From: Mizuhopecten yessoensis
Taxonomy: Eukaryota
Direction: 5' to 3'
DNA: 44,367 nt
NCBI RefSeq assembly: GCF_002113885.1
Contig: NW_018407210.1
Span: 160,926 to 205,292 of the forward strand
Part shown: positions 1 to 43,909 of the stretch, one piece after another
Layout: the number at the start of each line of letters is the position of its first letter
Position numbering within the stretch: position 1 is the first letter of the stretch
Position numbers and translations under genes: made by a program
Notes under the pieces: generated by a model
Databases searched by the model: none
What the model was told of the DNA's origin: nothing
Seen by the model: only the letters and a program-made list of their open reading frames with translations

Positions 1-200
1 CATAACATGGTTTGACAATTGTGTGGTGTAGGTCTGATCACAACTTGAACATAACATGGTTTGACAATTGTGTGGTGTAGGTCTGATCACAACTTGAACA
101 TAACATGGTTTGACAATTGTGTGGTGTAGGTCTGATCACAATTTGAGCATAACAAGGTTTGACAGTTGTGTGGTGTGGTCTGATCACAACTTGAACATTG
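1..200. repeat. Tandem repeat, 49-bp unit (cataacatggtttgacaattgtgtggtgtaggtctgatcacaacttgaa), ~4 copies
   Basis: Unit restarts at 1, 50, 99 and 148; the last copy is diverged. Confidence 0.9.
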
Positions 201-397
201 ATCACGACTTTGACAAAAATCTATATTTAATCTTGTGTTTTAAAGAACGCAAATATACAATATACCTTCAAATATCTTAAACATACAATAAATATGATAT
301 TTCAGTTAAAGGAAATACATATGGAAAAAACATTCAAAACTAACCAGCTTGCAGTAAAATTTCAACATTTCAAAGCTAACAAAACTAAGGCGATTAC

Positions 398-534
398 CTC
401 TGCCACTAGATCCATCAGTTTGCCACACACGTTCACACCCGTAAGTTCCACTGGATTGACTTCCTTCCCATCAGCAATCAGTCCAGATTTGACCTTTGAC
501 ATGGGGTCCAAAACATCTTTTACATCTTTTAAAT
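398..534 (-). CDS. PARP4: PARP4-like exon 13 (start of VIT domain): (N)LKDVKDVLDPMSKVKSGLIADGKEVNPVELTGVNVCGKLMDLVAE
   Basis: Matches human GLQDASGNLVPLEDVHIKGRIIDTVAQ. tttcag acceptor and GAG|GTAATC donor. The gene continues beyond the window start. Confidence 0.6.
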
Positions 535-1039
535 CTGAAATATGATTTTGTTACTATGATAGGAATTCACAAACAGAAACATCACGTAAATGCATTTATT
601 TACAACTGTTTTTTTTGTTTATTTGCTAATTCACAGTAATGTTGCTTATACTTAACAGGACTTGTAACTTTTGTATATAAAATGTATAGTCACATAAAAG
701 GTGTTTATACATTCTAATCCTAAAAATAAACTGTTTACTTGCCTATTTTTATGTTTAACATTTTTTGTTTATAATAAAAGAACACTTCTTCCTGCAAAAA
801 GCTTATTGCCTAAAAGATTTGCCTAACTCTCAATCCTAATTTTAACCAGATGTAATGGGAACACAAATATAGTTTTATTTGTAGAAAAACATTTACCAAA
901 TTATTAATAAAATGTCTTTTTTTCTCTTGTTTATGTTAAAATAAGAATAAAAGAGAACAAGAGGCCCAAAAGGCTGTCAATTGTTGCAGCTCTTCTAGTG
1001 AAAAATAGAAAACATCTGAGCCAATTAGATGCCAGGACA

Positions 1040-1915
1040 GTCAACTTGGAATTTTGGATAGGTGCAAAATGTAAGAAAACTAGGTGATAACCTTAAAGGG
1101 AACACTTGTACTCTGTATGGAAGTCAATCGCTGCAGCCAGTTTTGAAAAAAGTAAAAAAGGAAGCCATCTTGGAATTTCAGATTGGCACGGAAAGTGATA
1201 TCACTTGTTTGGGATGTTTGTTCAAGTTTCATGTCAATCCCTGCAGCCATTGCAGAGAAGAAGTCAAAAATGTCTGAGCCAACCACAAGCCATAACAGAC
1301 ATCTATTTTCAGATTGGCGCAAAAGGTATTAACACTTGGTTAGGACCACATAAGGAACATTTGTAACAAGTTTCCAGGCAATTGCTGCCGCCATTCTTGA
1401 AGTTGTATATGTCTCTTCAAATCAGAGGGCAAGGTGTACCAACTAGAAGCCAGGGAAGCTGTCATGAATTTTTTATATTGGCACAAAAACTAACAACACT
1501 TGGTTGAACCCACACACACACATTTGTACTAAGTTTGGAGTCAATCATCGAAGCTGTTTTGAAAGAAAATAAAACTTTCTCAGCCAATCAGAGACCAAGG
1601 CCAATCTTAAATTCTCAGCCAATCAGAGACCAAGGCCAATCTTAAATTCTCAGCCAATCAGAGACCAAGGCCAATCTTAAATTTTGAATCAAAAAGAAAA
1701 GTATGAATGCTTGGTGGTGACATTCCAGGAAATGTTTCTATTGAGTTTGGAGTCAATCACTGAAATTATTCTTGAGAAGTTAAAAATATCTAGAGGCCAT
1801 GCTGGCCATCTTTGATTTGTGGATTGGCACAAAAAGTAACAACACTTGATCACCCTAAACAGGAACAATTCTGTATCAAGTTTGGAGTCAGTCAATAATG
1901 TTGCTCTCAAGAAGT
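1040..1915. repeat. Degenerate higher-order tandem repeat, ~185-190 bp unit (motifs ttggcacaaaaagtaacaacacttg / ggaacatttgta.aagtttggagtcaatca / gaagtcaaaaatgt), ~4.5 copies
   Basis: The same blocks recur at ~1190, 1300-1400, 1480-1560, 1700-1770 and 1810-1900. Confidence 0.7.
1578..1684. repeat. 35-bp tandem repeat (ttctcagccaatcagagaccaaggccaatcttaaa) x3, nested in the 185-bp repeat
   Basis: Three near-identical consecutive copies. Confidence 0.9.
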
Positions 1916-3215
1916 CAAAATGTTTCTGCTGACCATATGTCAGAAACGCTAAGTCAAAATGTTTCTTCTGACCATATGTCAGAAACGCTAAGTCAAAATG
2001 TTTCTTCTGACCATATGTCAGAAACGCTAAGTCAAAATGTTTCTGGTGACCATGTCAGGTAAGCTAAGTCAAAATGTTTTTGCTGACCTTATGTCAGGTA
2101 CGCTAAGTCAAAACGTTTCTGCTGACCATATGTGAGAAACGCTAAGTCAAAATGTTTCTGGTGACCATGTCAGGTAAGCTAAGTCAAAATGTTTTTGCTG
2201 ACCATATGTCAGGTAAGCTAGGTCAAAATATTTCTGCTGACCATATGTCAGAAACGCTAAGTCAAAATGTTTCTGGTGACCATGTCAGGTAAGCTAAGTC
2301 AAAATGTTTTTGCTGACCTTATGTCAGGTACGCTAAGTTAAAATGTTTCTGCTGACCATATGTAAGAAACGCTAAGTCAAAATGTTTCTGGTGACCATGT
2401 CAGGTAAGCTAGGTCAAAATATTTCTGCTGACCATATGTCAGGTACGCGAAGTCAAAATGTTTCTGCTGAACATATGTCAGAAACGCTAAGTCAAAATGT
2501 TTCTGCCGACCATGTCAGGTACGCTAAGTCGAAATGTTTCTGCTGACCATAGGTCAGGTAAGCTAAGTCAAAATGTTTTTGCTGACCTTATGTCAGGTAC
2601 GCTAAGTTAAAATGTTTCTGCTGACCAGATGTCAGGGAAGCTAGGTCAAAATGTTTCTGGTGACCATGTCAGGTAAGCTAAGTCAAAATGTTTCTTCTGA
2701 CCATATGTCAGAAACGCTAAGTCAAAATGTTTCTTCTGACCATATGTCAGAAACGCTAAGTCAAAATGTTTCTTCTGACCATATGTCAGAAACGCTAAGT
2801 CAAAATGTTTCTGGTGACCATGTCAGGTAAGCTAGGTCAAAATGTTTCTGGTGACCATGTCAGGTAAGCTAAGTCAAAATGTTTTTGCTGACCATATGTC
2901 AGGTAAGCTAGGTCAAAATATTTCTGCTGACCATATGTCAGAAACGCTAAGTCAAAATGTTTCTGGTGACCATGTCAGGTAAGCTAAGTCAAAATGTTTT
3001 TGCTGACCATATGTCAGGTACGCGAAGTCAAAATGTTTCTGCTGAACATATGTCAGAAACGCTAAGTCAAAATGTTTCTGGTGACCATGTCAGGTAAGCT
3101 AAGTCAAAATGTTTTTGCTGACCATATGTCAGGTACACTAAGTCAAAATGTTTCTGGTGACCATGTCAGGTAAGCTAGGTCAAAATGTTTCTGCTGACCA
3201 TATGTCAGGTAAGCT
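1905..3215. repeat. Minisatellite, 36-39 bp unit (gctaagtcaaaatgtttcttctgaccatatgtcagaaac and variant gtcaggtaagctaagtcaaaatgtttctggtgaccat), ~35 copies
   Basis: Period 39 between successive gctaag motifs; two alternating subvariants. Confidence 0.95.
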
Positions 3216-3470
3216 TTCTTGGATTACAGATTGACAAGAAATGTAACAACACTTGGTCAGGACTTCATAAGCAACATTTGTACCAAGTTTGATGTCCATC
3301 TGTAGAGCCACTGATCTACAGTAGACATAAAAATGTCTCAGATAATCAGAGGCTGAGGCAACCAGGTTTTTTTCAGATCAAAACATAATACAACACTTGG
3401 GACAAGAAAAAGATCATTTGTTTTAAATTTGGAGTCAATCATTTTGGTGGTTCTTAGAAATAAAAAGTAA
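3215..3470. repeat. Continuation of the ~185-bp degenerate repeat on the far side of the minisatellite
   Basis: The blocks acaacacttgg..catttgtaccaagtttgatgtc and acaacacttggg..tttggagtcaatca recur. Confidence 0.6.
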
Positions 3471-3694
3471 CCAACTGTCGACGATCAATGCACTCTATAA
3501 GACGGATAGCATAGTCCAATCAGGAAATTACAATGACATTTCAAAGAATGGAAATCATTATATGATATATCTAAAAACAATACAACTTTTCTGCATTCAA
3601 CATTTTTCCTGATTTTTAAAGTAAAAAAAAGAATTACATGAAAATACTTTTGAGAAAATAGGCTATAAAATCAATATTTTCATATCTATAAAAT

Positions 3695-4135
3695 GTGTTT
3701 AAGATACAACTTACTGATTTTGTCGGTTTGTGTTTTAGATACAACTTACTGATTTTGTCGGTTGCTGTTGGGTGAGTATTTGTGTCTATGCTGTCGTGTA
3801 AAGATACAACTTACTGATTTTGTCGGTTGCTGTTGGGTGAGTATTTGTGTCTATGCTGTCTTGTAAAGATACAACTTACTGATTTTGTCGGTTGCTGTTG
3901 GGTGAGTATTTGTGTCTATGCTGTCTTGTAAAGATACAACTTACTGATTTTGTCGTTTGCTGTTGGGTGAGTATTTGTGTCTATGCTGTCGTGTAAAGAT
4001 ACAACTTACTGATTTTGTCGCTTGCTGTTGGGTCAGTATTTGTGTCTATGCTGTCGTGTAAAGATACAACTTACTGATTTTGTCGGTTGCTGTTGGGTCA
4101 GTATTTGTGTCTATGCTGTCGTGTACAGGTACAAT
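3695..4135. repeat. 65-bp tandem repeat (aagatacaacttactgattttgtcggttgctgttgggtgagtatttgtgtctatgctgtcgtgta), ~6.7 copies. Each copy carries a minus-strand A|GTAAGT donor
   Basis: Period 65 (3801 to 3866). The unit equals the 3' end of the PARP4 exon at 4075..4228 plus the first ~15 nt of the intron. Confidence 0.9.
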
Positions 4136-4228
4136 TTCCATGGGTATGGGTTTCTCACTGCCCACAGTGAACTCCACAAGGTAACACATCTTCTGTTGAT
4201 CCGGTGAGTATACTACATACTCATCCTC
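4075..4228 (-). CDS. PARP4: PARP4-like exon 12: EDEYVVYSPDQQKMCYLVEFTVGSEKPIPMEIVPVHDSIDTNTDPTATDKI
   Basis: Matches human EDDEFVVYKTNQVKMKYIIKFSMPGDQ. tgtgtag acceptor; the A|GTAAGT donor lies inside the first 65-bp repeat copy. Confidence 0.7.
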
Positions 4229-4325
4229 CTACACAATGAACACAAATACTAAACAGGTTTTATAGTATGTCCTGTAACAATGAACACAAATACTAAATGG
4301 GTTTTATAGTATGTCCTGTAGCAAT
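4212..4325. repeat. ~47-bp direct repeat x2.4 (caatgaacacaaatactaaa.gggttttatagtatgtcctgta)
   Basis: Visible direct duplication. Confidence 0.8.
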
Positions 4326-4924
4326 GGCTGGGATTGAAGAGTTAAAGCTATTTGTATAGTCGCCAACCTTTTTTGAGAGAGGATCAAAATTAATATAGCA
4401 TTAAAAAAATCACATCTGTTGAAATCCTGTTCAACACATGAAAAAAAATGATTAACAGTGACAAACACATACATGTATATAGATGCCCTTCTCATTTTAA
4501 AAATATGATGCAAGAAGTTTAAAACGAGGTTATAGAGATTTTTTAATGATTAATTAGTGTATTTCATTTACATATAAAAAAAGAAGTGCAACACTAAACA
4601 AATTTCTGTGAGGTTGGTTAGCACCGTGGAAGCAAACTCAACTCTCACCAAATTTGTCACCAGTTTGCTCCAAAATCAAGACCCCTGTAGGTGTCCCATC
4701 AAGGTCAGCAAGAGTGATTAATATAAGTTCATAAAAACTGTTTCATAACTAGAAATTTATAATAACTAGAATATGTCTCACCTTATAAGCCAATGTGCAT
4801 ATTTGGAAGAATAGAAAGGTCACATCAAGATTAAGGTGTATAAACTCTAAACCATTAAACTTTTAAATTGTTCTGGTTGATGTTAAATTGTCTTAACAAT
4901 TTGGTTAAGTTTCGGCAGCTATGG

Positions 4925-5430
4925 TACTATAGACACATTTACATAAAAATAGGAATTATCACACATCTGATTACAATCTGGTTCCTCTATTGGCTCATGG
5001 AACTTATGCTGCAGACAAACTTCAGTATAAAAAACTAACATAGGGCCATATCTTTTTATATAGTGAGGCAAGAGACCCGATTGCAGTACGCAACTCTCCG
5101 CCATTCCAAGATACTAAAATATAGCAAGTTTGGTCAACGTAGGTGAAATACCATGGAAGTTATGCTGTGGACAAACTTTGGTAATAAAAATAAACAAAGT
5201 GCTATAACTCAGTATATAGTGGGTCAAAAGACCCGATTTCAGTGCGAGAGATTCCGCCTTCTCAAGATATATAAATATGCTAAGTTTGGTCAACGTAGGT
5301 GAAATAACATGGAACCTATTCTCAGGACAAACTTCGGTATTAAAAATAAACAAAGAGCCATAACTCTGTATATAGTGGGGCACAAGACCTAATTCCAGTG
5401 CACTGCACACCTTCTGTGGGTGATGCAGGT
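4925..5430. repeat. ~165-170 bp tandem repeat x3 (catggaa.ttatgctg.ggacaaactt.ggta.taaaaa...gtttggtcaacgtaggtgaaata)
   Basis: Three diverged consecutive copies; the reported minus-strand ORFs here are repeat read-through. Confidence 0.8.
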
Positions 5431-5723
5431 ATACTTCAAGTTAAATTATCTGGGTGTGACAAAAGTTTACTGAAAATGTTGCACTTATTTGACCTTTGAC
5501 CTTGAGGTGAAGGTCACAGTGACCTAATTCTAGTGCACTGCACACCTTCTATGGATATCTTTAATGGTTTAGAATTCATGGCCCGGACAAGTTGCGTTTA
5601 GAAAAAGAAGAAGAACCAGAAGAACCAGTACTAATACAATATGTCTCCCTTCATTCCGAAGGAGAGACATAATTATTGTAAAATAAATAAAGTAAAAAAA
5701 CAACCTCTGAACAAATGACTTAC

Positions 5724-5880
5724 CGTGAAGTCTGAGCGTTTGTTGGATGTGTTGGCCACACCATGGACACTGGAGTAACCATTTGGGGCACGGTCAAGTG
5801 TCTGGTCATGCTTGTACAGGTCCATACACCTACCCAGAGCCACTTTATTGACCAGCATCATTCTCGTGCCCCGGCTCTTA
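5724..5880 (-). CDS. PARP4: PARP4-like exon 11 (PARP catalytic): (S)KSRGTRMMLVNKVALGRCMDLYKHDQTLDRAPNGYSSVHGVANTSNKRSDFT
   Basis: Matches human TDGTRLLLICDVALGKCMDLHEKDFSLTEAPPGYDSVHGV. The gtcag|T acceptor is chosen for phase; ACG|GTAAGT donor. Confidence 0.75.
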
Positions 5881-6322
5881 CTGACCTGTGAGTACTTTAC
5901 ACTAGTACTGGACAGACACAATTGTATCCAATTACTGACTGCTGATGAGGTGGGTGAAATGTATATACATACCCATGTAAGCTTATATTCAACTGATGCC
6001 AAGTATACCATCTTCAATTCTCAATTTGACAAATTAAATACATTAATTACTTAATTTCTGAATGTATATGGGTTAAATTCTGCACTTCAGGTTTTTATGG
6101 CTAAGTAACTTCACAAATTCAACGAAACCGAGAACGCTACTTTTAAATTAAGTAGCACAAAAACCTGCTAAACTTAAGATTTTTTTCATTTAAAAATATC
6201 ATAGATACATTTTTTCCAAAAGTCTAAAAGCAGTACAGGTACTTTTAATGTAAATTCTAACAAATCTGCAATCCTTGAACAATGTTTCTAGTAAGAGTAC
6301 CCTAGATATATTATACATTTAC

Positions 6323-6421
6323 CTGGCAGCACTTGCAAAATAGATGCCTGCTCCCAACATGCCAGCATCTGTTCTCTTGCCTCCATACTCATCCACAACC
6401 ATCTTTGGCATCAGTAAGCCT
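6323..6421 (-). CDS. PARP4: PARP4-like exon 10 (PARP catalytic): (R)GLLMPKMVVDEYGGKRTDAGMLGAGIYFASAA(S)
   Basis: Matches human RGLLLPKVVEDRGVQRTDVGNLGSGIYFSDS. ctccag acceptor and CAG|GTAAAT donor. Confidence 0.8.
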
Positions 6422-6904
6422 CTGGAGAACACAATGTAAGCATAGGCTGTACATAGGCTGTACATATGTGAGTTACATTACAAAGAGGAACTACAGTCTT
6501 ACCACTTACCACGTTTTTAGTTTTCCCATTTTTAGTTCAAACAAAACAGATTGTCACCAGTTGCCTCAAACACCAACAAGTCAAATAGGAGCTACATTTA
6601 TAAGATGTTTCCTAAAGGAACACCTGGAGTACTTAGAATTGTTCCAAGTATCATACAAATCAAAGTTCTGACATATCAATATAGTGATAGTATAGACATC
6701 AACAGCCCATCTATATAATAATGACATACTGGTATGCGTCATCTAACGCAACTCAGATCCAAAGACTGACAATTAGACATTCATAGAAATGTGAGAGTAA
6801 ATGTTGTCAGGAGAACTTCCCTATATATATAGTTCACCCCGGTAAAATACCATAATAGTGAAGAGAACTTCCCTATATATATATTTCACCCTGGTAAAAT
6901 ACTA

Positions 6905-6995
6905 ATCCCTTTCTGCTAGGTAACATTTCTCTATAGCTCATTCAGTAGAGCATAAGACTGATACACCAATGGTCTCAGGTTTGACTCCTAGTGGA
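6905..6995 (+). mobile_element. tRNA-derived SINE-like head (degenerate tRNA-Lys-like; A-box-like TAGCTCATTCAGTAGAGCA and B-box-like GGTTTGACTCC)
   Basis: Similar to the tRNA D-arm and T-arm, but the acceptor stem does not pair, so it is not a functional tRNA gene. A satellite follows directly. Confidence 0.45.
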
Positions 6996-7014
6996 GGCAT
7001 CGAAAAAAGTAATG

Positions 7015-7600
7015 ATCTCTGTTACATAGGTGCCCAAGGTGGGGCCTCTGTTACATACTGTAGGTGTCCAAGGTGGGGCCTCTGTTACATACTGTAGGTG
7101 TCCAAGGTGGGGCCTCTGTTACATACTGTAGGTGTCCAAGGTGCCCCGGGGCCTCTGTTACATACTGTAAGTGTCCAAGGTGGGGCCTCTGTTACATACT
7201 GTAGGTGTCCAAGGTGGGGTCTCTGTTACATACTGTAGGTGTCCAAGGTGGGGCCTCTGTTACATATTGTAGGTGCCCAAGGTGCCCCAGGGCCTCTGTT
7301 ACATACTGTAGGTGTCCAAGGTGGGGCCTCTGTTACATACTGTAGGTGCCAAAGGTGCCCCGGGCCTCTGTTACATACTGTAAGTGCCCAAGGTGGGGCC
7401 TCTGTTACATACTGTAGGTGCCCAAGGTGCCCCAGGGCCTCTGTTACATACTGTAGGTGCCAAAGGTGCCCCGGGGCCTCTGTTACATACTGTAGGTGCC
7501 CAAGGTGCCCGGGCCTCTGTTACATACTGTAGGTGCCCAAGGTGCCCGGGGCCTCTGTTACATACTGTAGGTGCCCAAGGTGGGGCCTCTGGTGTACTAG
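7015..7600. repeat. 34-bp (38-bp variant) satellite (ctctgttacatactgtaggtgtccaaggtggggc), ~16 copies
   Basis: Regular period; the Gly/Pro-rich ORFs on both strands are artefacts. Confidence 0.95.
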
Positions 7601-7662
7601 TCTTACGCTCCACAGAATAAAATTACATCAGATTATGTTTATGGTACCATAATTGTGTTTAC

Positions 7663-7800
7663 CTGGACAAAATCCCAACAAAGTTGTTTGGTTTGGATGC
7701 ATGAAACAAAAGGGTCTGGTTGAATATGTCCTTGGTAAAATGATCCTCTTCCATCTGTCTCTGTACCTCAAATACGTTCGTTATGTTCAGCCTGGTATTC
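7663..7800 (-). CDS. PARP4: PARP4-like exon 9: NTRLNITNVFEVQRQMEEDHFTKDIFNQTLLFHASKPNNFVGILS(R)
   Basis: ccccag acceptor and CAG|GTAAAC donor. Matches human IFRVGRVNETTEF..LGNVRPLLHGSPVQNIVGILCRG. Confidence 0.75.
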
Positions 7801-7934
7801 CTGGGGTACAAAAAAGACACAATATTATCTTTTCTTTATTTACAACTAAATGTTGCAAGAACTTGTGTATAACCCATATTTAAATTATCATCCCTTTCAT
7901 TCTATTTAGAATCAAAGATTAAATTACAACCATG

Positions 7935-8855
7935 GAAACATTAAAGTTGTCACAACCTCAGAAGTGTTACATTACCCGGTAAAACTTTTATAACCCCTGC
8001 TTACAACCTCAGAAGTGTTACATTGTCCGGTAAAACTTTTATTACCCGTGCTTACAACCTCAGAAGTGTTGCATTACCCGGAAAAACTTTTATAACCCGC
8101 GCTTACACCCTCAGAAGTGTTACATCATCCGGTAAAACTTTTATAACCCGTGCGTACAACCTCAGAAGTGTTGCATTACCCGGAAAAACTTTTATAACCC
8201 GTGCGTACAACCTCAGAAGTGTTGCATTACCCGGAAAAACTTTTATAACCCGCGCTTACACCCTCAGAAGTGTTACATTGTCCGGTAAAACTTTTATAAC
8301 CCGTGCTTACAACCTCAGAAGTGTTACATTACCGGGTAAAACTTGTATAACCCGTGCTTACAACTTCAGAAGTGTTACATTATCCGGTAAAACTTTTATA
8401 ACCCGTGCTTACAGCCTCAGAAGTGTTACATTACCCGGTAAAACTTTTATATCCCGTGCTTACAACCTCAGAAGTGTTACATTACCGGGTAAAACTTATA
8501 TAACCCGTGCTTACAACTTCAGAAGTGTTACATTACCGGGTAAAACTTATATAACCCGTGCTTACAACTTCAGAAGTGTTACATTATCTGGTAAAACTTT
8601 TATAACCCGTGCTTACAACTTCAGAAGTGTTACATTATCCGGTAAAACTTTTATAAGCCGTGCTTACAACCTCAGAAGTGTTACATTACCCGGTAAAACT
8701 TTTATATCCCGTGCTTACAACCTCAGAAGTGTTACATTATCCGGTAAAACTTTTATAACCTGTGCTTACAACTTCAGAAGTGTTACATTATCTGGTAAAA
8801 CTTTTATTACCCGTGCTTACAACCACAGAACTATTAAGCTTGTTCAAAACTGGTC
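7935..8855. repeat. 51-bp satellite (ccggtaaaacttttataacccgtgcttacaacctcagaagtgttacattac), ~18 copies
   Basis: A period of 51 (= 17 codons) explains the 292-aa ORF at 8023..8901 as an in-frame repeat artefact. Confidence 0.9.
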
Positions 8856-8864
8856 TCGCAACCA

Positions 8865-8990
8865 TAAAAGTTTCTTTAGAACAAATACTCCTAGAACATG
8901 AATTTACACTTCAAAGCATGTTTAGAACAAGTACTCCTAGAACATGAATATACATTTCAAAGCATGTTTAGAACCAGAACTCATAGAAAC
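8865..8990. repeat. ~46-bp repeat x2.7 (gaacaa.tactcctagaacatgaat.tacatttcaaagcatgttta)
   Basis: Direct repetition. Confidence 0.8.
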
Positions 8991-9106
8991 ACGATTCTTT
9001 TCCATTTTATTTTTTAATTTAATTTTTGCAAAGATTTATTATAATATCTCTTTTTTTTTCGCAAGGAGAACCATTCACTATGTTGAAGCCCCATTTTGTT
9101 ATTTAA

Positions 9107-9716
9107 AGCTATAAGCTAAAACAAAGAACTGCTATAATTAGCTAAAACAAAGAACTGCTATAAGCTAGAACAAAGAACTGCTATAAGCTAAAACAAAGAA
9201 CTGCTATAAGCTAAAACAAAGAACTGCTATAAGCTAAAACAAGGAACTGCTATTAGCTAAAACAAAGAACTACTATAAGCTAAAACAGAGAACTGCTATA
9301 AGCTAAAACAGAGAACTACTTTAAGCTAAAACAAAGACCTGCTATAAGCTAAAACAAGGAACTGCTATAAGCTAAAACAAAGAACTGTTATATAAGCTAA
9401 AACAGAGAACTGCTTTAAGCTAAAACAAAGAACTGCTAGAAGCTAAAACAAAGAACTGCTAGAAGCTAAAACAGAGAACTACTTTAAGCTAAAACAAAGA
9501 ACTGCTATAAGCTAAAACAAATAACTGCTATAATTAGCTAAAACAAAGAACTGCTAAATTAGCTAAAACAAAGAACTGCTATAAGCTAAAATAAAGAACT
9601 GCTATAAGCTAAAACAAAGAACTGCTATAATTAGCTAAAACAAAGAACTGCTATAATTAGCTTAAACAAAGAACTGCTATAAGCTAAAACAAGGAACTGC
9701 TATAAGCTAAAAACAC
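9107..9716. repeat. 23-bp microsatellite-like array (gctaaaacaaagaactgctataa), ~26 copies, with occasional 26-bp variants
   Basis: Regular period. Confidence 0.95.
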
Positions 9717-9769
9717 TGAAGCCTGTCTGTTTCCACATCAAGTACATTAGAACAGAACACGGTACATAC

Positions 9770-9930
9770 CCATCCAGAGACTTGTTGACCAGTGCCTTGA
9801 CTGTCTTGTACACATGGTGATCAGGGGCCCTGTGTTCTATCTGACACCTAAGGGCACGGTATTTGGACTCTGTCGACCCTCGGAGTGACCAGCCAGTGGA
9901 CTCACTGACCGTCAGCATGTCTTTCATCAC
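9770..9930 (-). CDS. PARP4: PARP4-like exon 8: VMKDMLTVSESTGWSLRGSTESKYRALRCQIEHRAPDHHVYKTVKALVNKSLDG
   Basis: ttggtag acceptor and GG|GTATGT donor. Matches human LIRDMVNVCETNLSKPNPPSLAKYRALRCKIEH. Confidence 0.8.
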
Positions 9931-10246
9931 CTACCAACCATTGAAGTAGAACCTGTTAAACTTGACCTCAAAGGATTTTATGTTTTCCCAAACTGAACCC
10001 AAATATCCAGATAGTTGAAATATTTTGCTTGGACCAAGCATGAAATATTTTTCTTAATCATGATAGTTTACAAATAAAGTTGAGCAGGATTCAGGGTAGC
10101 ATATTTCATTTTTAACCTTTTCCTTGAAAAAACAATAATAAAACTGACATGGTACTATGGACCAGGAGTACCTAATACATGTATCTATTGTTTGATTGAC
10201 AGCCAGCAATAAGTGACACAGATCTCTGTTGTATGAGTACTATGAA

Positions 10247-10690
10247 CTAGTAGAACCTACCTGACAAAGATCCTGTTCCGTAGACAACCAGGCGTTTTTG
10301 ATACAATTGGCTGTTGTGTCTGTAATGTGTACTAGTAGAACCTATCTGACAAAGATCCTGTTCCGTAGACAACCAGGCGTTGTTGATACAGTTGGCTGTT
10401 GTGTCTGTAATGTGTACTAGTAGAACCTATCTGACAAAGATCCTGTTCCGTAGACAACCAGGCGTTGTTGATACAGTTGGCTGTTGTGTCTGTAATGTGT
10501 ACTAGTAGAACCTATCTGACAAAGATCCTGTTCCGTAGACAACCAGGCGTTGTTGATACAGTTGGCTGTTGTGTCTGTAATGTGTACTAGTAGAACCTAT
10601 CTGACAAAGATCCTGTTCCGTAGACAACCAGGCGTTGTTGATACAGTTGGCTGTTGTGTCTGTAATGTGTACTAGTAGAACCTACCTGAC
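10247..10690. repeat. 85-bp tandem repeat, 5+ copies, duplicating the 3' end of PARP4 exon 10686..10844 plus its donor
   Basis: Copies start at 10247, 10331, 10416, 10501, 10586 and 10671. On the minus strand each copy reads ..aacgcctggttgtctacggaacaggatctttgtcag(a/g)taggttctactag. Confidence 0.9.
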
Positions 10691-10844
10691 AAAGATCCTG
10701 TTCTGTAGACAACCAGGCATTGTTGACACTGCTGATGGCCACCTTGTTGTTGTGTGGAAGAGTGGAGTAGAACTCATTGAGGACAGACTGCTTGTCTTCT
10801 GGTTCACCTCTTAGCTTCATTAACAAAGCTTCAGCCTTCTCAAT
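10686..10844 (-). CDS. PARP4: PARP4-like exon 7: IEKAEALLMKLRGEPEDKQSVLNEFYSTLPHNNKVAISSVNNAWLSTEQDLCQ
   Basis: ttttag acceptor and CAG|GTAGGT donor. Matches human SKAEGILLLVKAALKNGE..EFYRLIPHKG..KKADLCQ. Confidence 0.75.
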
Positions 10845-10974
10845 CTAAAACATCCCATAAAAACCTAATTTTCCAGTGGATAAGGTCAAATCACATTCTG
10901 GATCAGTCTCAATTCATAGTGTTCTGGCTTATTACATTAATTTGTTACTAATCCATTTAATTCATCATTTCATT

Positions 10975-11360
10975 GGAGCACATTCATGAAACAGCATAGT
11001 ACTGGAGGTCAAGGTCAAAAGGTCAAATTGAGGTAACAATGACCTCATATTAGGATATTTTTTATTTTAAATAAGGCTTTTCCATGATGTACTTATATAC
11101 AACATTTGATCCCAATTCATGAAACAGTGGCTGAATAATGCTCTTACCACCAATATTTCAGTATTTGAGGTCAAGGTCAGTCAAGGTCCCATGATGTTCA
11201 TATGTACAAAGTTTGATGCCTATTCATGAAACAACATCAAAGATATGCTCTGAAAACCATCATTATAGTACTTGAGGTCAAAGTCAAAGGTCAAATTGAG
11301 GTCACATTGACCTCATGTTAGGATGTGACACACCACTTCCCCATGATGCACTTATGATAC
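10975..11360. repeat. ~125-bp degenerate tandem repeat x3, rich in AGGTCA direct repeats (gaggtcaaggtcaaa..ggtcaaattgaggtcacattgacctcat)
   Basis: Each copy has a catgaaaca..gaggtcaaggtca core. Confidence 0.75.
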
Positions 11361-11472
11361 CTGGACAAATCAAATACTATATGCCCCTTACTTTTGTCAA
11401 AGCAGGAGTATAAGCATGGGGATAAACACATTATTTCACATATCAGTGATGCTGGTACTCCAGTCTTCTGAC

Positions 11473-11607
11473 CTGTTCTAGTTTGACTGAGCTTGGTGAG
11501 GTCAGGATCTCTGATAGGTCTGAGTAGGCCTCCCTCCATATTCCCTCCACTAGTTCACAGACAGGATCAGATAACTCTGCTTTCTCTAATCCAAATGCCA
11601 TCATCAT
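11473..11607 (-). CDS. PARP4: PARP4-like exon 6: MMMAFGLEKAELSDPVCELVEGIWREAYSDLSEILTSPSSVKLEQ
   Basis: tgtcag acceptor and CAG|GTCAGA donor. Matches human SQEVSDLVEMIWAEALGHLEHMLL. Confidence 0.65.
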
Positions 11608-11872
11608 CTGACAAACAGAATAATTCAATTTATCATTGTTCATTAAAGTAATTCTTTTAAATTATTATGCATAATTATGAAAACTGAAAATCAATAAAAA
11701 AAGCTTAACCGAAATCTCTTCTTGTCACAGACTGCACTTTGAGACCTTCAGGCCTCATACTAATTTTTTTTTTTAAATCTAACATATTTTAAATTTCCGT
11801 TTCAAACATAAGAATGACAGAAAACTAAAGACTGCTTGGTTCAAACTTGTTGATTTTCAGAGATTTGCTAAC

Positions 11873-12034
11873 CTTTTGAAAGTTCAATGTGCCTATGCCC
11901 CTGGGAGGTGCATCATGGGATACCTCCATTAGATTTGGGTGTTCCGTCTGCTGTTTGTACAAGAAACTGTACATCTTGGTAGCTTCGTCTGATGTCTCAA
12001 CATAATAACATTCCATTTTCTCAGGTTTTCCTTC
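11873..12034 (-). CDS. PARP4: PARP4-like exon 5: EGKPEKMECYYVETSDEATKMYSFLYKQQTEHPNLMEVSHDAPPRGIGTLNFQK
   Basis: gatag acceptor and AAG|GTTAGC donor; phase 0 to 0. Confidence 0.6.
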
Positions 12035-12534
12035 CTATCAAGTAAGTTAAGAAATGTTATAAACATTTTTTTACATGTATCATACTTAGAGGATCTTAAG
12101 TGAATTTTCATATCATACAGAATTTGAATTTGTGAAATGAGTGTAAGAATTCTTTATTTTATTGAGACTCTAGTGAGTTGAAATGACACATTTGTGATGA
12201 CCTTCATAATATAAACCTCATATGAAATGGAAAGGCACGTAAGATTCTGTTTACCCAACATTCTTGAAAACAACACTATCTTAGGTTGACTTGAATTTAA
12301 AATATCAACATTCTCTATCCAACTTGTTTTCTTTTAACTGTAACATCACAATGGAAATGGAAGTCTGTGACATCAGGAAGTTATGACATCACTATGGAAA
12401 CAATAGGAATATATAGCCAATCACAGCTCATGCACCTAAAGGTGAAATTTAATGTGTATTCGTAACACAATAACGCAGTTAGTGTTATACACTGATACAA
12501 GCAGGGTTTCTGTATCAGAATAACTTTACACCAC

Positions 12535-13345
12535 TAATTATTTACTCATCTGTCTCATTGAAAATGAGCTATTTGTATTTATTTACTCATCTGTCTCATT
12601 GAGAATGTGCTATTTGTATTTATTTACCCATCTGTCTCATTGAGATGAGCTATTTGTATTTATTTACTCATCTGTATCATTGAGAATGAGCTATTTGCAT
12701 TTATTTACTCATCTGTCTCATTGAAAATCAGCTATTTGTATTTATTTACTAATCTGTCTCATTGAAAATGAGCTATTTGTATTAATTTAACCATCCGTCT
12801 CATTGAGCATGAGCTATTTGTATTTATTTACACATCTGTCTCATTGAAAATGATCTATTTGTATTTATTTACTCATCTGTCGCATTGAGAATGAGCTATT
12901 TGTTTTTTTTTCCCCGCCTGTCTCATTGAGAATGAGCTTTTTGTTTTTTTTTCCCCGCCTGTCTCATTGAGAATGAGCTTTTTGTTTTTTTTTCCCCGCC
13001 TGTCTCATTGAGAATGAGCTTTTTGTTTTTTTTTCCCCGCCTGTCTCATTGAGAATGAGCTTTTTGTTTTTTTTTCCCCGCCTGTCTCATTGAGAATGAG
13101 CTATTTGTTTTTTTTTCCCCGCCTGTCTCATTGAGAATGAGCTTTTTGTTTTTTTTTCCCCGCCTGTCTCATTGAGAATGAGCTTTTTGTTTTTTTTTCC
13201 CCGCCTGTCTCATTGAGAATGAGCTATTTGTATTTATTTACTCATCTGTCTCATTGAAAATGAGCTATTTGTATTTATTTACTCATGTCTCATTGAGAAT
13301 GAGCTATTTGTATTTATTTACTCATCTGTCTCATTGAGAATGAGC
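12535..13345. repeat. 41-47 bp tandem repeat (tttactcatctgtctcattgagaatgagctatttgtattta and variant tttttttttccccgcctgtctcattgagaatgagctttttg), ~18 copies
   Basis: Period 41 (12541 to 12582 to 12623); a poly-T/CCCCGCC subvariant block at 12890-13200. Confidence 0.95.
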
Positions 13346-13434
13346 TATTTGTATTTTGAACAGATGTTCATCATTGATATATATACTAAATTTACAAAAA
13401 AACACAATGAAGTATTGGTAATTTGATATTGTAC

Positions 13435-13569
13435 CTGGATGTGTTTGAGGTTGCCATGGTGTTTGGATACCCTGAATCTGTGGATTTGTCCAGGCAGAAA
13501 GTCCCGTTCTTCAGTAACGTGAACCTCCAGCACACAGAAAAAAATCCTCCCTGCACTCTTTACATATTT
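13435..13569 (-). CDS. PARP4: PARP4-like exon 4: KYVKSAGRIFFCVLEVHVTEERDFLPGQIHRFRVSKHHGNLKHIQ
   Basis: tttcag acceptor and CAG|GTACAA donor. Matches human AVVVELQCSRDSRDCPFLISSHF. Confidence 0.6.
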
Positions 13570-13844
13570 CTGAAACAGTAACCAAGCCAGGACATGCAAA
13601 ATAACAAGTACGGTATTTACTTCAGTAAGTGTATATTTATGTTGACTGTCTTTTCATGAGGAACTTGAGTTCTGATCTAATTCATGTGTGTTACATTTGA
13701 GTACCTCTGTATACCCATTTTATATGTTGATAAGGTGTGGATTAAAAAACTATTTACATGGGTGATAATGCAAAATTGTTCCTTAAAGACTTGTAATCAA
13801 ATAAATCATAAGTTACGTTAGGACTGAAGAAGCAACAGTGAATA

Positions 13845-14710
13845 CCCAAGATATAATAAATTACATGTAACCCTGCCCCGATATAATAAATTACGTGTAA
13901 CTCTGCCCACATATAATAAATTACGTGTAACCCTGCCCAGATATAATAAATTACGTGTATCCCTGCCCAGATATAATAAATTACGTGTAACTCTGCCCAG
14001 ATATAATAAATTACGTGTAACCCTGCCCAGATATTATAAATTACATGTAACCCTGCCCAGATATAATAAATTACGTGTACCCCTGCCCAGATATAATAAA
14101 TTACGTGTAACCCGGCCCAGATATAATAAATTACGTGTAACCCTGCCCAGATATAATAAATTACCTGTAACCCTGCCCAGATATAATAAATTACATGTAA
14201 CTCTGCACGGATACAATAAATTACCTGTAACCCTGCCCGGATACAATAAATTACCTGTAACCCTGCCAAGATATAATAAATTACGTGTAACCCTGCCAAG
14301 ATCTAATAAATTACGTGTAACCCTGCCCAGATATAATAAATTACCTGTAACCCTGCCCAGATATAATAAATTACGTGTAACTCTGCCCGGATACAATAAA
14401 TTACCTGTACCCCTGCCCAGATATAATAAATTACATGTAACTCTGCACGGATACAATAAATTACCTGTAACCCTGCCCAGATATAATAAATTACATGTAA
14501 CTCTGCCCGGATACAATAAATTACCTGTAACCCTGCCCGGATACAATAAATTACCTGTAACCCTGCCCAGATATAATAAATTACATGTACCCCTGCCAAG
14601 ATATAATAAATTATGTGTAACCCTGCCCAGATATAATAAATTGTGTGTAACCCTGCCCAGATATAATAAAGTACATGTAACCCTGCCCAGATATAATAAA
14701 TTACATGTTA
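13845..14710. repeat. 30-bp satellite (ataataaattacgtgtaaccctgcccagat), ~29 copies
   Basis: Period 30; this produces the long minus-strand ORFs at 13754..14599. Confidence 0.95.
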
Positions 14711-14773
14711 CCCTGTTTCAAAGCAGATTCTGCAATGCTGGATGTAAACAAGTGATCTTTCTAGCGTTCTCAC

Positions 14774-14913
14774 CTGTAACACAGCATATTTTGCCACCTG
14801 GTATTTGGCGCTGTTGAAAATGGGAGTGTGTTTTTCCTGTAGTGGCCATGCCTTCACTCCCGCTGGATAGAAGGACGACTTCTTCCTCTTACCAAGAATC
14901 TGGTACTTTGTAG
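14774..14913 (-). CDS. PARP4: PARP4-like exon 3: (A)TKYQILGKRKKSSFYPAGVKAWPLQEKHTPIFNSAKYQVAKYAVLQ
   Basis: Phase-compatible with exon 2 (G|CT). CAG|GTGAGA donor. Weak match to the human ..DFEVAKYNTLEK region. Confidence 0.55.
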
Positions 14914-15691
14914 CTATCACAAAAGTAAACACAAAAACCCTTATATCCTTCATCAGCACATTTCAACTTCAAGAACTATTCATAAACTGTTCCATAATGT
15001 TGATAAAAAAATATGTCTGCTTGTTTGTTTCTTCAGGCAGAATAAAAATCAGATATTTGCTTTTAAATGAAGCAATACTTTTCCTTTGGAGAAATCAAAA
15101 TGATTGAAAATTTGTTTCAAGAAGCCAAATGCAGTAACATAAAGGTAAGATATAGCAACATATCTTTGCATAGACAATGAGTACTATTTTCTATGAGTTC
15201 AAATCCAAAACTCACAACCATCTAAATGGTGTGCCCTTGTTTTAAACATTTAACCATCATATGTACGAATAAAACATTAGTTATGAAAGTAAACTAAATA
15301 CTACTACTTAAAATTTGTCTGTAAGGATGCCCTGCTCCTACACTTAAGAAGTAAAGCAAGGTCATAAAAGTCAAGGTCAAAGGTCAAAGCTACAAAAAGT
15401 AATACAGTATCCTGTACTCACAGAGGAGCATTAGCATGTGAAGTGGCATGACCCTAGCTGCAGTAGTTACCACTAAGGCCAAAGAGGTGAAGCTCAAAGT
15501 TGGAAGGTCACAAAATTGCTGTAAAATGTGCTGTACTCACATAGACACATAGTCATGTAAAGTTACATAGCTGAGTTGCAGTGCTTGTAGTCCATAACTG
15601 ATCTAAACACAAAAGCTGAATCAGCTGGAAATATGTAAGTTTGTTTCGCTTATTTGAGGTACATTATGAAACATTTTATATAAATCTTTAC

Positions 15692-15890
15692 CTGCAATTT
15701 TACCAGAGCCAAGTTTCTGAGACCTTGTTTTGCCAATAACCAGGTAATCATCTGAACAAAGTAGTCTCCCTTCCTCCACACAGTCATACAGGAAGGCAAC
15801 GGACACAACGGGGATGCCATACTTCTGGGCCATCTTACGCTTGTAGCTGGTGTCCGCTTTGGCAGGGTCGTTACATACCACATGAGTACT
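15692..15890 (-). CDS. PARP4: PARP4-like exon 2 (BRCT C-terminal half): STHVVCNDPAKADTSYKRKMAQKYGIPVVSVAFLYDCVEEGRLLCSDDYLVIGKTRSQKLGSGKIA
   Basis: cctag acceptor and CAG|GTAAAG donor. Matches human QCTHIILDNADVLSQYQLNSIQKNHVHIANPDFIWKSIREKRLL. Confidence 0.7.
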
Positions 15891-16260
15891 CTAGGAAAAA
15901 TAAGCAGATTTTGTATTTTACAAATGATGTATATTTCTATTTGAATGAAGTTATATGATCGATTTAAGTGTGAACATGAATTTTCTCATAAAAGTACAAT
16001 ATACATTTGTACATGTACATTTCAAACTACTTATCTAAAAGTGTATGCCTAGTTATGAATGAAATTTGGCAAAGGTTTAAAGAAGATTTTATTAAACATT
16101 CTTATTTTTGAAGACCAACCATGACTAAAGAATATTGGCACATGCAATCTGTTTTAGTATAAGGATTTAATTTAGTAAATCAGCACTTTCTAGAGTTGAC
16201 CTTATTTGTAGTACTTTGACTTCTGGGTGCAAACTTGTTACCTGCTTAAAAGCTTCTTAC

Positions 16261-16392
16261 CTTCTTTGTAACAATGTAGGAGACAATCCCGTCATTATCT
16301 GTGATTTTCTTACGGATTTCTTGTTTCTTTTTGAAGCTGACACTTGTTGTTAGGTCAAGGACAACATGGCAACCACCGAATATTGTTGCCAT
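16261..16392 (-). CDS. PARP4: PARP4-like exon 1 (start codon; BRCT N-terminal half): MATIFGGCHVVLDLTTSVSFKKKQEIRKKITDNDGIVSYIVTKK
   Basis: ACCATGG Kozak context. Similar to human PARP4 MVMGIFANCIFCLKVKYL...GGKFSFSL. GTAAG donor after AAG. Confidence 0.7.
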
Positions 16393-17428
16393 GGTGATGT
16401 CTACAACTGTTGATCCCTATGTAGCCTGCTGTCAGTATTTAGGACTCTTTAGTTTGAAGTTGCACACACCAACTAATAATAGTCAAAGGTTTTTAATCTT
16501 AAATGAAGCTCAGCAATTCATCTGTTTATTGAAAAAATGATGAATCTGAAAAATAACAATACCTTTATTGATTACAAATTCAGCATTCTGAACTTTTAGA
16601 GTGTGAAATTGATAGAAAGCACTATAACGTTGGCCTAAAACAAATGCATTGTACATGTATAACTAAAATTCAAAGCTTAAAAACACAAGTGATTCAAAGT
16701 TACATGTGTATCAGCAAAAGAACAGTGTGGGGAAATACTGCCTTACTGCTATAGCTTTAGTTAAGCATGCAACAACAAGCATGGCTATGCAGTGCCTATA
16801 TATTGTAGATGTTATAGGTGGCAATGCTGTGACCCTTGCCGTATCCTGTAAGGCCAGTTCTAGGCGGCTCAGGGAAGGTGCATTAATTGGTACACATGCT
16901 GGGAGGACCCTCAAGATACCTGTACATGTACTTACTTTACAACAATTATGAAACATGTTATTTCCACTTTTATGATGATTACTCACTCTTGTTGGCCTGA
17001 ATGTTAGTGTGCGCGGAGTCTTAATGTGGGAGGAAACCAGAGTACCTGGAGAAAATCCATGTAGTTGGGCAGGTGACCCCATACTTTACAATATAAGGGC
17101 GAAAAACTGCCTCACTCATGCAGGCAAGCTAACTTTTCCAGCTACACAGTATATATATAACTCTGTCCTGTCCGCCATTCACATCTGGTAGCAGTGTAGT
17201 TACCTTGTGGTACATATCATGTAATTTTATAGTAACTCTGGCCAACTCTCAGTGCATGGTTAGGGAACAGCATTGGTACACATGGAATACATAACCTACA
17301 GGATTCCCCAGGTCAAGTCTCCGGATGATAATACTCCGAGGGGAATAGTGCAATAGCCAAAGAATATGTGGGGGAAATACTGCCTTCCTGGTAATTAAGC
17401 TAGCTTCTCCAGTGATGTGGTTTAACCA

Positions 17429-18381: not shown

Positions 18382-18562
18382 TGTGGTGTTTGTTGACGTT
18401 CTGTAAGCGTGCGAATGACTGTGAGTGAAGCATGTGAGTGACCTCGAATTGTTCATGCATGTGTTTTGTTCCAAGATAAAAAGTACCCAAGCTGAGATAG
18501 CTGTCCAGTGTTCTATATTTGTGAAGCGTATGTGTGCCGACTGTACTGGTACGAATACAACA
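18382..18562 (+). repeat. 5' LTR (181 bp, tgtggtg...tacaaca)
   Basis: Identical to 25797..25977. The upstream and downstream flanks differ between the two copies. Confidence 0.9.
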
Positions 18563-18563
18563 A

Positions 18564-18581
18564 TGGCGTCACGAGCATTCC
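18564..18581 (+). promoter_or_regulatory. Primer-binding site TGGCGTCACGAGCATTCC, 1 nt after the 5' LTR
   Basis: TGG.. complementary to a tRNA 3' end ..GGAAUGCUCGUGACGCCA. Which tRNA is not determined; it is possibly Arg-like. Confidence 0.6.
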
Positions 18582-19319
18582 CGAGTCTGTTCGCGGAGGT
18601 CATGGATACGCTAGAATCCGAGGAGAATTTCTAGTGGGATTAATACAAGAGACGTAGAATCCCGGGTAGAGGGTGCGCGCCATCTTTGATTGTCTTTTGT
18701 GTGATACACGTGTTTTGTGTTTCACGTTGTCCCAATGTTTATGTTTTGTGTTTAGAGTTGTATCCTGGGTAGAGGGAGCAATTTATTCACAAATTCATTC
18801 GATAGTTGACCCGTGTAGAAGGCCAACTACTGTCTGATACCCTTGCGTGTTTTTAAATAATAAAACAAAAACCAAAAACGAAACAAACGGAAACGGAACG
18901 GTTATCTTAGGACAATAAAAAAATAAAATATTTAGACAACATTTTATTCGTGGTCACGTTGGTTAGGTGCTCTGGTGGCGCTGTACCAATGGTAACTGAT
19001 GTTTGATTAATTTAGTTTCAAGTGTATTCAGTGAGGTAGGTGTTCTGTTGACGCCAGGCTGCTCTGAATATCTATATATATATTTATTAATTTTTTTTTG
19101 CTCGCTGTGGTAGGTGTTCTGTTTGACGCTAACCCTCGAGTATTATTTATATTAAAACCACAGCTAGGGTGTCGGTTGTTTTTCTCTTACTGTTCTAATA
19201 TGCAGTGTGGTGGGTGGTAATTACCGCTACCCCTGTTTAATAGAAATAAATTTTGTAAAAGGATTTGGGTATATTTTTTTTTTTTTTTTCTCTTGTTGTT
19301 TCTGTGTTAACAGATCTAG

Positions 19320-20114: not shown

Positions 20115-20129
20115 TTGTAATACGGCAGC

Positions 20130-20230
20130 GGGTTGGTGATCTGTTGTCGCCTTATCCCCTGCACCGTAGAACTCTTAAACGATAAGTTGAGGTTGTGGGT
20201 TGGTGATCTGTTGTCGCCTTATCCCCTGCC
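20130..20230 (+). repeat. Two copies of a 33-bp direct repeat (gggttggtgatctgttgtcgccttatcccctgc) at 20130-20162 and 20198-20230, immediately upstream of the gag ATG
   Basis: Exact duplication separated by 35 bp. Confidence 0.9.
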
Positions 20231-20233
20231 ACA

Positions 20234-25746: not shown

Positions 25747-25782
25747 GTGTGAACTGACTCCACAGTATACAGGGACTTCTAT

Positions 25783-25796
25783 AAAAGAGGGAGGAA
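25783..25796 (+). promoter_or_regulatory. Polypurine tract AAAAGAGGGAGGAA, immediately 5' of the 3' LTR
   Basis: Purine run abutting the LTR start TGTGG. Confidence 0.75.
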
Positions 25797-25977
25797 TGTG
25801 GTGTTTGTTGACGTTCTGTAAGCGTGCGAATGACTGTGAGTGAAGCATGTGAGTGACCTCGAATTGTTCATGCATGTGTTTTGTTCCAAGATAAAAAGTA
25901 CCCAAGCTGAGATAGCTGTCCAGTGTTCTATATTTGTGAAGCGTATGTGTGCCGACTGTACTGGTACGAATACAACA
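25797..25977 (+). repeat. 3' LTR (181 bp)
   Basis: Identical to the 5' LTR. Confidence 0.9.
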
Positions 25978-42494: not shown

Positions 42495-42782
42495 GTGGCA
42501 GCTATATTTAGATCGCTGGAGGCCATATTGCTCAGGATTGCAGATGACCTTGACAAGTTCTCCATGGTTGGTCAGAACATCGTCCAAAGACTTTTGTCCT
42601 CCCAAATGGCCACCATCTACTTCACACTTTTGATGACCAACAAGTCTGGCCACATCAAGGTTACCCTCAAGCTGCTGACTGCTATGGTCATGTTGGGAGA
42701 CCGGTCAGCACGAATGATTCTTGCTCAATTTGACTTCAACAATCCAGTCTTGCCACCATTATTGAACCGCAGAGACAAAAAG
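42495..42782 (+). CDS. Plus-strand gene exon 3: VAAIFRSLEAILLRIADDLDKFSMVGQNIVQRLLSSQMATIYFTLLMTNKSGHIKVTLKLLTAMVMLGDRSARMILAQFDFNNPVLPPLLNRRDKK (helical-repeat-like)
   Basis: ccag acceptor and AAG|GTAGGG donor. A duplicated alternative donor lies 48 nt downstream at 42830. Confidence 0.6.
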
Positions 42783-42829
42783 GTAGGGAATCCAGTCTTG
42801 CCACCATTATTGAACCGCAGAGACAAAAA
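42732..42829 (+). repeat. 48-bp direct duplication (aatccagtcttgccaccattattgaaccgcagagacaaaaaggtaggg x2) that includes the exon 3 donor
   Basis: Exact tandem duplication spanning the exon-intron junction. Confidence 0.95.
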
Positions 42830-43909
42830 GGTAGGGTGGGCATCAATCTTGTGCCATAAACAAAGGCTGGTTTAAAATATTGTAACCAACTCTAGAAAGT
42901 AATTCTTTACCAATGACCATTAAAGTTATGTTGGTGCACTTTCAGTTTTCAAAACTAGATTGTAAAATGACATATCACAACAGCTAAGCAAGAAAGCATC
43001 TGTATTATGTTTTCATGGATGCTATATGCTTTCAGGTATATCAAAGAATTTTGTAAGTTTTCAGCACCCATTCTGCTATGATCATAGTCTCTTGACAGTT
43101 TATAGCTGTTGGTTTGTTAGAGGTGCATACTAGTAAAGCATCAAACTACTTTCAGTTGGCATTCATAGCCAATATGAATGCCAACTGGACAAAGAAAAAT
43201 TCAATGTAGTGTGTTAGCGCTTCATGTTGGATTTGCCTTTGTCCAGATGGAATTCATATTGCCTTTGAATGCCAAATGAAAGCAGTTCAATACCTCTTTT
43301 TACCATTTTTGGAATCTGTTCATCTCACAAAAAGGATCTTTTTTCACTCATCATCATTCAGCATTTAGCTCAGATAATGTATGTATTGTGTATGCTTGTT
43401 CAATTAATAGACAGCCATCGCCCGGGAACTGAATTTGGTAGGGTTATATAGTGGCAATGCCATACGATGGTAGATATACTGCTCTCATGTGTCGTTTAGC
43501 ATGTGTAGTTTTAGCATTAATTAATCCTTTCTAGTGTCACTACTGATACACAAGTCATTGCTTATGAAAAAAATGATAGTTGTCATTCTCTACTATCATT
43601 GGAATGGGCTACAAAGAAGGTAAGCTGTTCAAGAGTGTTGCGCATGCTGCACCATCATTATATGGGCTCTAGTAAACCTATAGCCATACACACTGACACA
43701 TTTTGAGCTTGACAACTTTCAAGAAAAGACAAATTATACTGTAGATAAATGATTTCTTTTGCTAACTTTACCCCCACTTAAAGAAGAATATATAGTAGTA
43801 AGCTAGTTTTAGAACATGTACCCCATCTGTGCATGTGTGCATCAGCTTTCATGCAACTGTAATGTTTGTAGCGATAAGTACACTGTAATTTTATTCTGTT
43901 GTGCTTCAG

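Follow-up and report, generated by a model that had tools for sequence, protein, structure and literature searches.

The first part of a 3,540-nt intron in a PARP4-like gene is occupied by a young, locally born minisatellite, in which the end of the preceding exon is reiterated together with its donor site. The repeats lie head to tail with a unit of tens of base pairs, as detected by TRF; the outermost unit holds the authentic exon–intron junction, whose position is set by homology (Pfam, tblastn) and by agreement of phase with exon 398..534, the next one; and the splice-site sequence ATCAGTAAGTTGTATCT, present seven times in the 65-bp array, is reiterated in the intronic units. These are the three structural features of junction-spanning minisatellites of the ‘mirage’, or F7-IVS7, type, and the assignment of the array to this class is considered quite probable.

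The PARP4-like gene is located on the minus strand at positions 1-16400 of the window, that is, of the whole analysed stretch of 44,367 nucleotides, which is eukaryotic, has an A+T content of 63% and is rich in tandem arrays. The spliced exons of the gene match the Pfam profiles PARP (E=6e-30) and BRCT (E=9e-13) and, in a tblastn search, align with pieces of a PARP4 orthologue on the metagenome contig L001. This contig (ENA ERZ25069837) contains at 8601-17000 the orthologue with the BRCT, PARP and VIT domains, in a compact short-intron eukaryotic genome; a weak match to the MVP-binding domain of PARP4 was found on its sister contig, L002. Protein search in a collection poor in animal proteins gave only three distant PARP matches, and back-translated scans of the metagenome contigs revealed no relative.

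The exon preceding the array, 4075..4228 (minus strand, 154 nt), was delimited by its open reading frame and translation, by tblastn to the PARP ORF of L001 and by Pfam. It encodes the end of the PARP catalytic domain and a linker (EDEYVVYSPDQQKMCYLVEFTVGSEKPIPMEIVPVHDSIDTNTDPTATDKI), matches the C-terminal end of the orthologue's catalytic domain (tblastn, L001) and can be taken, on its translation and these matches, as real PARP coding sequence. Its acceptor, tgtgtag|GAG at 4228, is in phase 0, in agreement with the phase-0 donor ACG|GTAAGT of the preceding exon, and the donor of exon 4075..4228 itself, ATCA|GTAAGT (last exon base 4075), is in phase 1. The next exon, 398..534 (minus strand), represents the start of the VIT domain according to its sequence, tblastn and alignment to the orthologue; it has the phase-1 acceptor ttcag|AT and the donor GAG|GTAATC, and encodes (N)LKDVKDVLDPMSKVKSGLIADGKEVNPVELTGVNVCGKLMDLVAE, with 43% identity to the start of the VIT region of the orthologue (E=1.8e-4, tblastn, VIT ORF of L001). 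Intron 535..4074 (minus strand, 3,540 nt; TRF and sequence) lies between these exons; the junction array occupies its first 381 nt, and the remainder carries unrelated arrays at 1577-1683 and 1912-3215 (TRF).

The array was detected by TRF at 3737-4134 with a period of 65 bp, 6.1 copies, 97% matches, no indels and a score of 740, together with a 35-bp pair at 3694-3763. On the minus strand it contains seven copies of GTAAGT, with the G at 4074 in unit 1, at 4009, 3944, 3879, 3814 and 3749 in the pseudo-donors of units 2-6, and at 3714 in the distal truncated unit. The 24-mer GACAAAATCAGTAAGTTGTATCTT occurs seven times at up to three mismatches, always within the array, and was absent from 100 shuffles. 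Unit 1, the founding unit (4061..4125, minus strand; in-register unit comparison), consists of 51 exon nt (4125-4075) and 14 intron nt (4074-4061, GTAAGTTGTATCTT), and includes the authentic 5' splice site TCA|GTAAGT (4069..4077, minus strand), with the last exon base at 4075 and GT at 4074-4073. Units 2-6 (3736..4060, minus strand; TRF and in-register comparison) are 65-bp copies of the exon end and donor, each differing from unit 1 at one or two of the 65 positions. The variants, at positions 5, 27, 40 and 65 of the unit, are ordered along the array; for example, units 1-2 have G and units 3-6 have C at position 27, and A at position 5 is found in units 4-5. The distal truncated unit (3694..3735, minus strand; TRF 35-bp pair and in-register comparison) belongs to a 35-bp duplication, AACCGACAAAATCA+GTAAGTTGTATCTTAAACACA, of the same junction, and continues into AAACACATTTTATAG, presumably the original intron sequence.

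The original prediction of a 65-bp array at this site, grown from an exon end and its donor, is confirmed by TRF, by the in-register unit comparison and by the phase match. Small adjustments are required, in addition to that of the TAG frame given below: the ‘about six further copies’ hold for the donors, six of which follow the first, the full further units being five, plus one truncated, and the consensus strength ascribed to the donors applies to the intronic side. In terms of consensus matches, the only measure of donor strength given here, all seven donors agree with the consensus at six of six intronic positions, and the three exonic positions, TCA, do not fit MAG.

The 65-bp unit was found nowhere else in the 44-kb window and has no exact match in the JGI metagenome contigs; the array is accordingly of local origin. 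A dispersed or transposon-borne satellite family was rejected, as the other loci searched, namely, the rest of the window and the JGI metagenome contigs, lack the unit. No Rfam match above the gathering threshold was found across the whole window.

The exon end and the acceptor at 534 are both in phase 1, so that donor 1 alone connects the two exons in frame, in support of the earlier placement of the exon boundary at 4075. Because only the donor at 4075 keeps the frame, the array grew from the exon end and its donor. The length of 65 nt leaves a remainder of 2 on division by three, so the TAG within the unit is out of frame in the exon copy and in frame in unit 2. In the exon frame ACAGCATAG reads GAC AGC ATA GAC, and in unit 2 it turns into an in-frame TAG at 4048-4046 (4046..4048, minus strand; ORF 4046-4189 and read-through translation), encountered when donor 1 is skipped. 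Read-through past donor 1 is translated as ...TDKISKLYLYTTA*, with the TAG 28-30 nt past donor 1, nine codons after the exon end. The in-frame TAG, earlier attributed to every copy, is thus retained for unit 2 only.

Donor 1 is the sole donor ahead of the in-frame stop, and any later donor would give a stop-containing message, since the TAG at 4048-4046 would be retained. By frame analysis, only donor 1 is predicted to be capable of yielding the full protein; from the reading frame and by analogy with described arrays, it is presumably the donor used, the six further GTAAGT acting as intronic pseudo-donors. Use of a later donor would likely result in a transcript that is degraded or encodes a protein ending after the PARP domain. 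Folding of the array pre-mRNA (z=+0.31) revealed no unusual structure by which the pseudo-donors might be masked. Tandem alternative 5' splice sites producing protein isoforms were also considered and rejected, as the frame is not preserved (65 mod 3 = 2, with the TAG 28-30 nt past donor 1).

Duplications at exon–intron junctions were found elsewhere in the window. A companion 85-bp array of the same design, also mentioned in the original prediction and confirmed here by TRF and in-register comparison, is located at the donor of another exon of the PARP4-like gene (10246..10726, minus strand). Its exon copy reads CAG|GTAGGT, with the last exon base at 10686, and the last copy again carries GTAGGT; in the four internal copies, CAGATAGGT, the donor G is gone. 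The exon copy and the homogenised internal copies differ at two synonymous sites, and for this reason the 85-bp array looks older; the pattern fits homogenisation of internal units with the edge units excluded. A perfect twofold 48-bp duplication is present in an Npa1/URB1-like gene (42741..42836, plus strand; TRF with 100% identity, sequence and Pfam Npa1). Its unit consists of 42 exon nt and GTAGGG, and the Npa1 match (E=2e-15) extends to the exon end. The 48 nt correspond to 16 codons, so splicing from the second donor would insert VGNPVLPPLLNRRDKK without a change of frame; the next Npa1 exon was not found in 42837-44367.

At the opposite end of exon 4075..4228, a 44-bp array of 2.1 copies (4233-4326, minus strand) approaches the acceptor from upstream to within 4 nt. 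Good pseudo-acceptors, TTGTTACAG|GA, are present in its units, compared with the real TTGTGTAG|GA, and the inclusion of the acceptor itself in the unit is ambiguous. With the 65-bp and the 44-bp arrays, the exon is flanked on both sides by duplications touching its splice sites.

The PARP4-like gene is rich in such repeats: 14 tandem arrays with periods of 23-156 bp, the largest being the 1.3-kb array of 39/115-bp units at 1912-3215, cover 43% of its 16.4-kb span. Under random seeding of these 14 arrays in the gene, 0.46 donor-spanning arrays are expected and two were observed (P=0.07); for junctions of any kind, 0.91 are expected, with P=0.23 for two and P=0.055 for three. For the whole window (19 arrays, 18 known donors), the expectation is 0.44 against three observed (P=0.009), a post hoc value for which unrecognised exons would raise the expectation. 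Local tandem duplication is frequent in general, which is enough to account for the junction arrays, and their enrichment at junctions is marginal. The proposal of a recurrent mechanism expanding exon–intron junctions is only weakly supported: the third donor-spanning duplication, in another gene, speaks for it, and the array coverage and the random-seeding estimate within the gene speak against it. A junction preference is possible, and the window-wide excess is a hint of some process beyond random seeding; it is, nevertheless, unlikely that donor junctions in this genome are true hot spots at which minisatellites arise or are retained. Were they such, they could owe this to a mutational process linked to splice sites, or to selection favouring reiterated U1-binding sites where introns are long and laden with repeats, and the arrays might supply raw material for shifts of intron position, of the kind seen in the PARP-to-VIT intron, which is 17 codons off that of the orthologue.

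Among the other features of the window, a CHMP1-like gene contains two tandem versions of one coding exon, 33525-33632 and 34203-34310 (minus strand), with the sequences HLFNLKFAAKDLERNAKRSEKSEKEEKTKLKK and HLFNLKYSARSLQRFAVKCDKEERAEKRKLKK. They have similar upstream flanks (ATACCTTAACA), both end in AAAAAG|GT and, from their sequence, look like mutually exclusive exons; the first coding exon of this gene was not found. An apparently intact LTR retrotransposon is located at 18382-25979 (plus strand), with 183-bp terminal repeats (18382-18564 and 25797-25979) that are 100% identical, which suggests a very recent insertion. It contains a gag-like ORF (20234-21637) and a pol ORF of 1341 aa (21721-25746), ending in a cysteine/histidine-rich, PHD-finger-like motif; no exact sequence match on record was found for the pol, gag and 264-aa ORFs.

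The junction array itself would be neutral or slightly harmful, a by-product of the abundant local tandem duplication in this genome, with its first unit remaining the working exon end and donor. A functional role is improbable: reiterated U1-binding sites could reinforce exon definition or, in a long intron filled with repeats, counteract premature cleavage, or regulated use of later donors could tune PARP4 output via stop-containing transcripts or a short PARP-only isoform. Such a role would agree with the preservation of GTAAGT in all seven donors, as against the loss of the donor G in four of the six copies of the 85-bp array, and with the nominal excess of donor-spanning duplications in the window. 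However, the units are 97-98% identical, so the intact donors may simply reflect youth, and in the comparable repeat of human F7 no autonomous regulatory element was detected and the pseudo-sites are silent (PMC1557585).

The exonic part of the unit was compared with the linker of the orthologue, the only one used being the distant PARP4 of L001, with 41% identity over the aligned region. The alignment has only two gaps, of 3 and 1 residues, and the stretch from P[MT]EI to [LI]xDV comprises 20 residues in both proteins without a gap. The 17 codons within the repeat unit, VHDSIDTNTDPTATDKI, have ungapped counterparts in the orthologue and are therefore not a recent 65-nt insertion. Of the three frames of the unit a single one is open, namely, that of the exon. 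Judged from this alignment, the exonic part of the unit can be regarded as ancestral coding sequence and not as a captured satellite unit. The PARP-to-VIT intron of the orthologue, about 200 nt in length and in phase 2, is found 17 codons upstream of its counterpart in the window, the linker being too divergent to place it within a few nucleotides; the position of this intron is accordingly not conserved between the two distant species, and it gives no direct support for the donor position at 4075.

The reverse order of events is quite improbable. According to this scenario, a 65-bp intronic satellite bearing GTAAGT pre-existed, the old donor decayed (GTAAGT to GGAAAT, 4139-4134), splicing moved one unit downstream and a repeat unit became exon. 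The 14 nt preceding unit 1 do agree with the intronic 14 nt of the unit at 10 positions, and the intron of the orthologue lies upstream, near the 5' edge of the array, in phase 2, which is also the phase of a donor at CAT|GG. A shift of 65 nt, however, alters the phase and requires a matching change of the acceptor, which is not visible, and the linker is equal in length to that of the orthologue, without a gap for 21.7 added codons.

Growth of the array from the exon end would most likely have begun with duplication of the 65-bp segment through replication slippage or unequal exchange. Comparison of the breakpoints showed that the exonic GGAAATTGTACCTG (4126..4139, minus strand), the 14 nt preceding unit 1, forms an imperfect direct repeat with the intronic GTAAGTTGTATCTT located 65 nt downstream (binomial P=6e-4 for the ten matches), and ACAC comes after both this sequence and the intronic 14 nt of the unit. 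The first duplication was probably primed by this imperfect direct repeat, whose two copies, exonic AATTGTACCTG-TACAC and intronic AGTTGTATCTT-AAACAC, lie 65 nt apart and would be the partners of the event. Later slippage or unequal exchange may have enlarged the array to six units, a separate 35-bp duplication of the same junction being present at its far end. Slippage, put forward in the original prediction as one candidate, is thus plausible in view of the repeat at both breakpoints, the step itself being deduced.

An assembly artefact affecting the copy number or the whole array is very unlikely. Tandem repeats are often mis-assembled, but the ordered variants at positions 5, 27, 40 and 65, together with the distinct truncated end unit, are typical of real minisatellites, and many independent arrays are present in the same window.

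That the repeat is purely intronic, every 65-bp unit belonging to the intron and the exon truly ending at GAAATT|GTACCT (last base 4133), is extremely improbable and was rejected on the reading frame: a GT is present at 4132-4131 and the TRF edge of the array lies at 4134, but this phase-0 donor, which the original prediction had named as a possible refutation with one G too many (GAAATTG|GTACCT), gives ATT ATT TAA with the phase-1 acceptor at 534, the sole other nearby AG (catag|TAA) also leads to a stop, GTACCT fits the donor consensus at +1 to +3 only, and about 20 linker residues having ungapped counterparts in the orthologue would be deleted.

Taken singly, the 65-bp junction minisatellite is one more case of a described curiosity, probably with little effect on the gene. 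Its seven identical donors put gene prediction, annotation and the mapping of junction reads at risk. The array may also serve as a naturally occurring construct for testing how a 5' splice site is chosen outside mammals, having seven identical intronic halves and a built-in stop that reports mis-choice.

Intron gain through tandem duplication of an exon segment containing AGGT is described by the Rogers model (Hellsten et al. 2011, PMC3265369). The PARP4-like array shares with it local tandem duplication that repeats splice signals within a gene, with the protein unchanged; in contrast to the model, no new intron is formed here, and the array pads the 5' end of an existing 3.5-kb intron. Creation of the intron in this manner was rejected, as only the first 381 of 3,540 nt are made up by the array and the region around the acceptor shows no relation to the unit. 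This kind of intron gain was reportedly also treated by Gao and Lynch in 2009, as cited in PMC3087553.

Minisatellites whose first unit spans an exon–intron boundary are known in the human genes F7, CBS (IVS13), IFI6 (6-16), LMNB2 and PDGF (PMC1557585). In IVS7 of F7, the first unit of a 37-bp VNTR spans the boundary of exon 7, and of the five to nine identical donors the upstream-most alone is used, being chosen by 5'-to-3' scanning; its inactivation activates the next one. The experimentally examined arrays of this design rely mainly on the upstream-most donor, although IFI6 and CBS also make use of their first two pseudo-sites (PMC1557585). The array described here likewise has the authentic donor in a boundary-spanning first unit, followed by identical pseudo-donors. 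It differs from F7 in the exonic portion of the unit, 51 nt as against 4 nt, and in the donor, which is weak in F7 (UGG|gugggu) and has a perfect intronic half, GTAAGT, in the PARP4-like gene. The cases of the F7 type are mammalian and experimentally tested, whereas the PARP4-like array is known from sequence.

The closest parallels in design are the boundary-spanning repeats of the lancelet. The original ‘mirage’ paper is said to be that of Canestro et al. 2002 (NAR 30:2871). Boundary-spanning tandem repeats, or ‘mirages’, are described in the lancelet genes Adh3, for which the name was introduced, and subsequently globin BflGb6/BflGb9, PGBD5 and troponin C (TnC); in the globin case, two haplotypes have six and three units and the edge units escape homogenisation (PMC3087553, PMC3902484). 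Splicing was reported to be undisturbed, and the authors suggest that the phenomenon may be general in the group (PMC3087553, PMC3902484). The arrays of the window resemble these mirages in the head-to-tail arrangement, in a unit composed of an exon edge and the adjacent intron with its splice signal, in unit lengths of tens to about 160 bp with few to several copies, in their occurrence in several genes of one genome and, as in the 85-bp array, in the sparing of edge units from homogenisation. They differ in that the PARP4-like gene is not among the published cases, and that several of the latter are located at acceptors, whereas the 65-bp array is located at a donor. As far as can be judged from sequence features, the resemblance may serve as a lead. 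The papers on the lancelet do not decide between two views, namely, that duplications at boundaries are no more than the fraction to be expected where local tandem duplication is very frequent, or that junctions are preferred; the three donor-spanning duplications in 44 kb suggest that a genome-wide count in this species could settle the matter. The design of a boundary-spanning minisatellite is thus already described, in lancelet and human, and the array of the PARP4-like gene is a further example of it.
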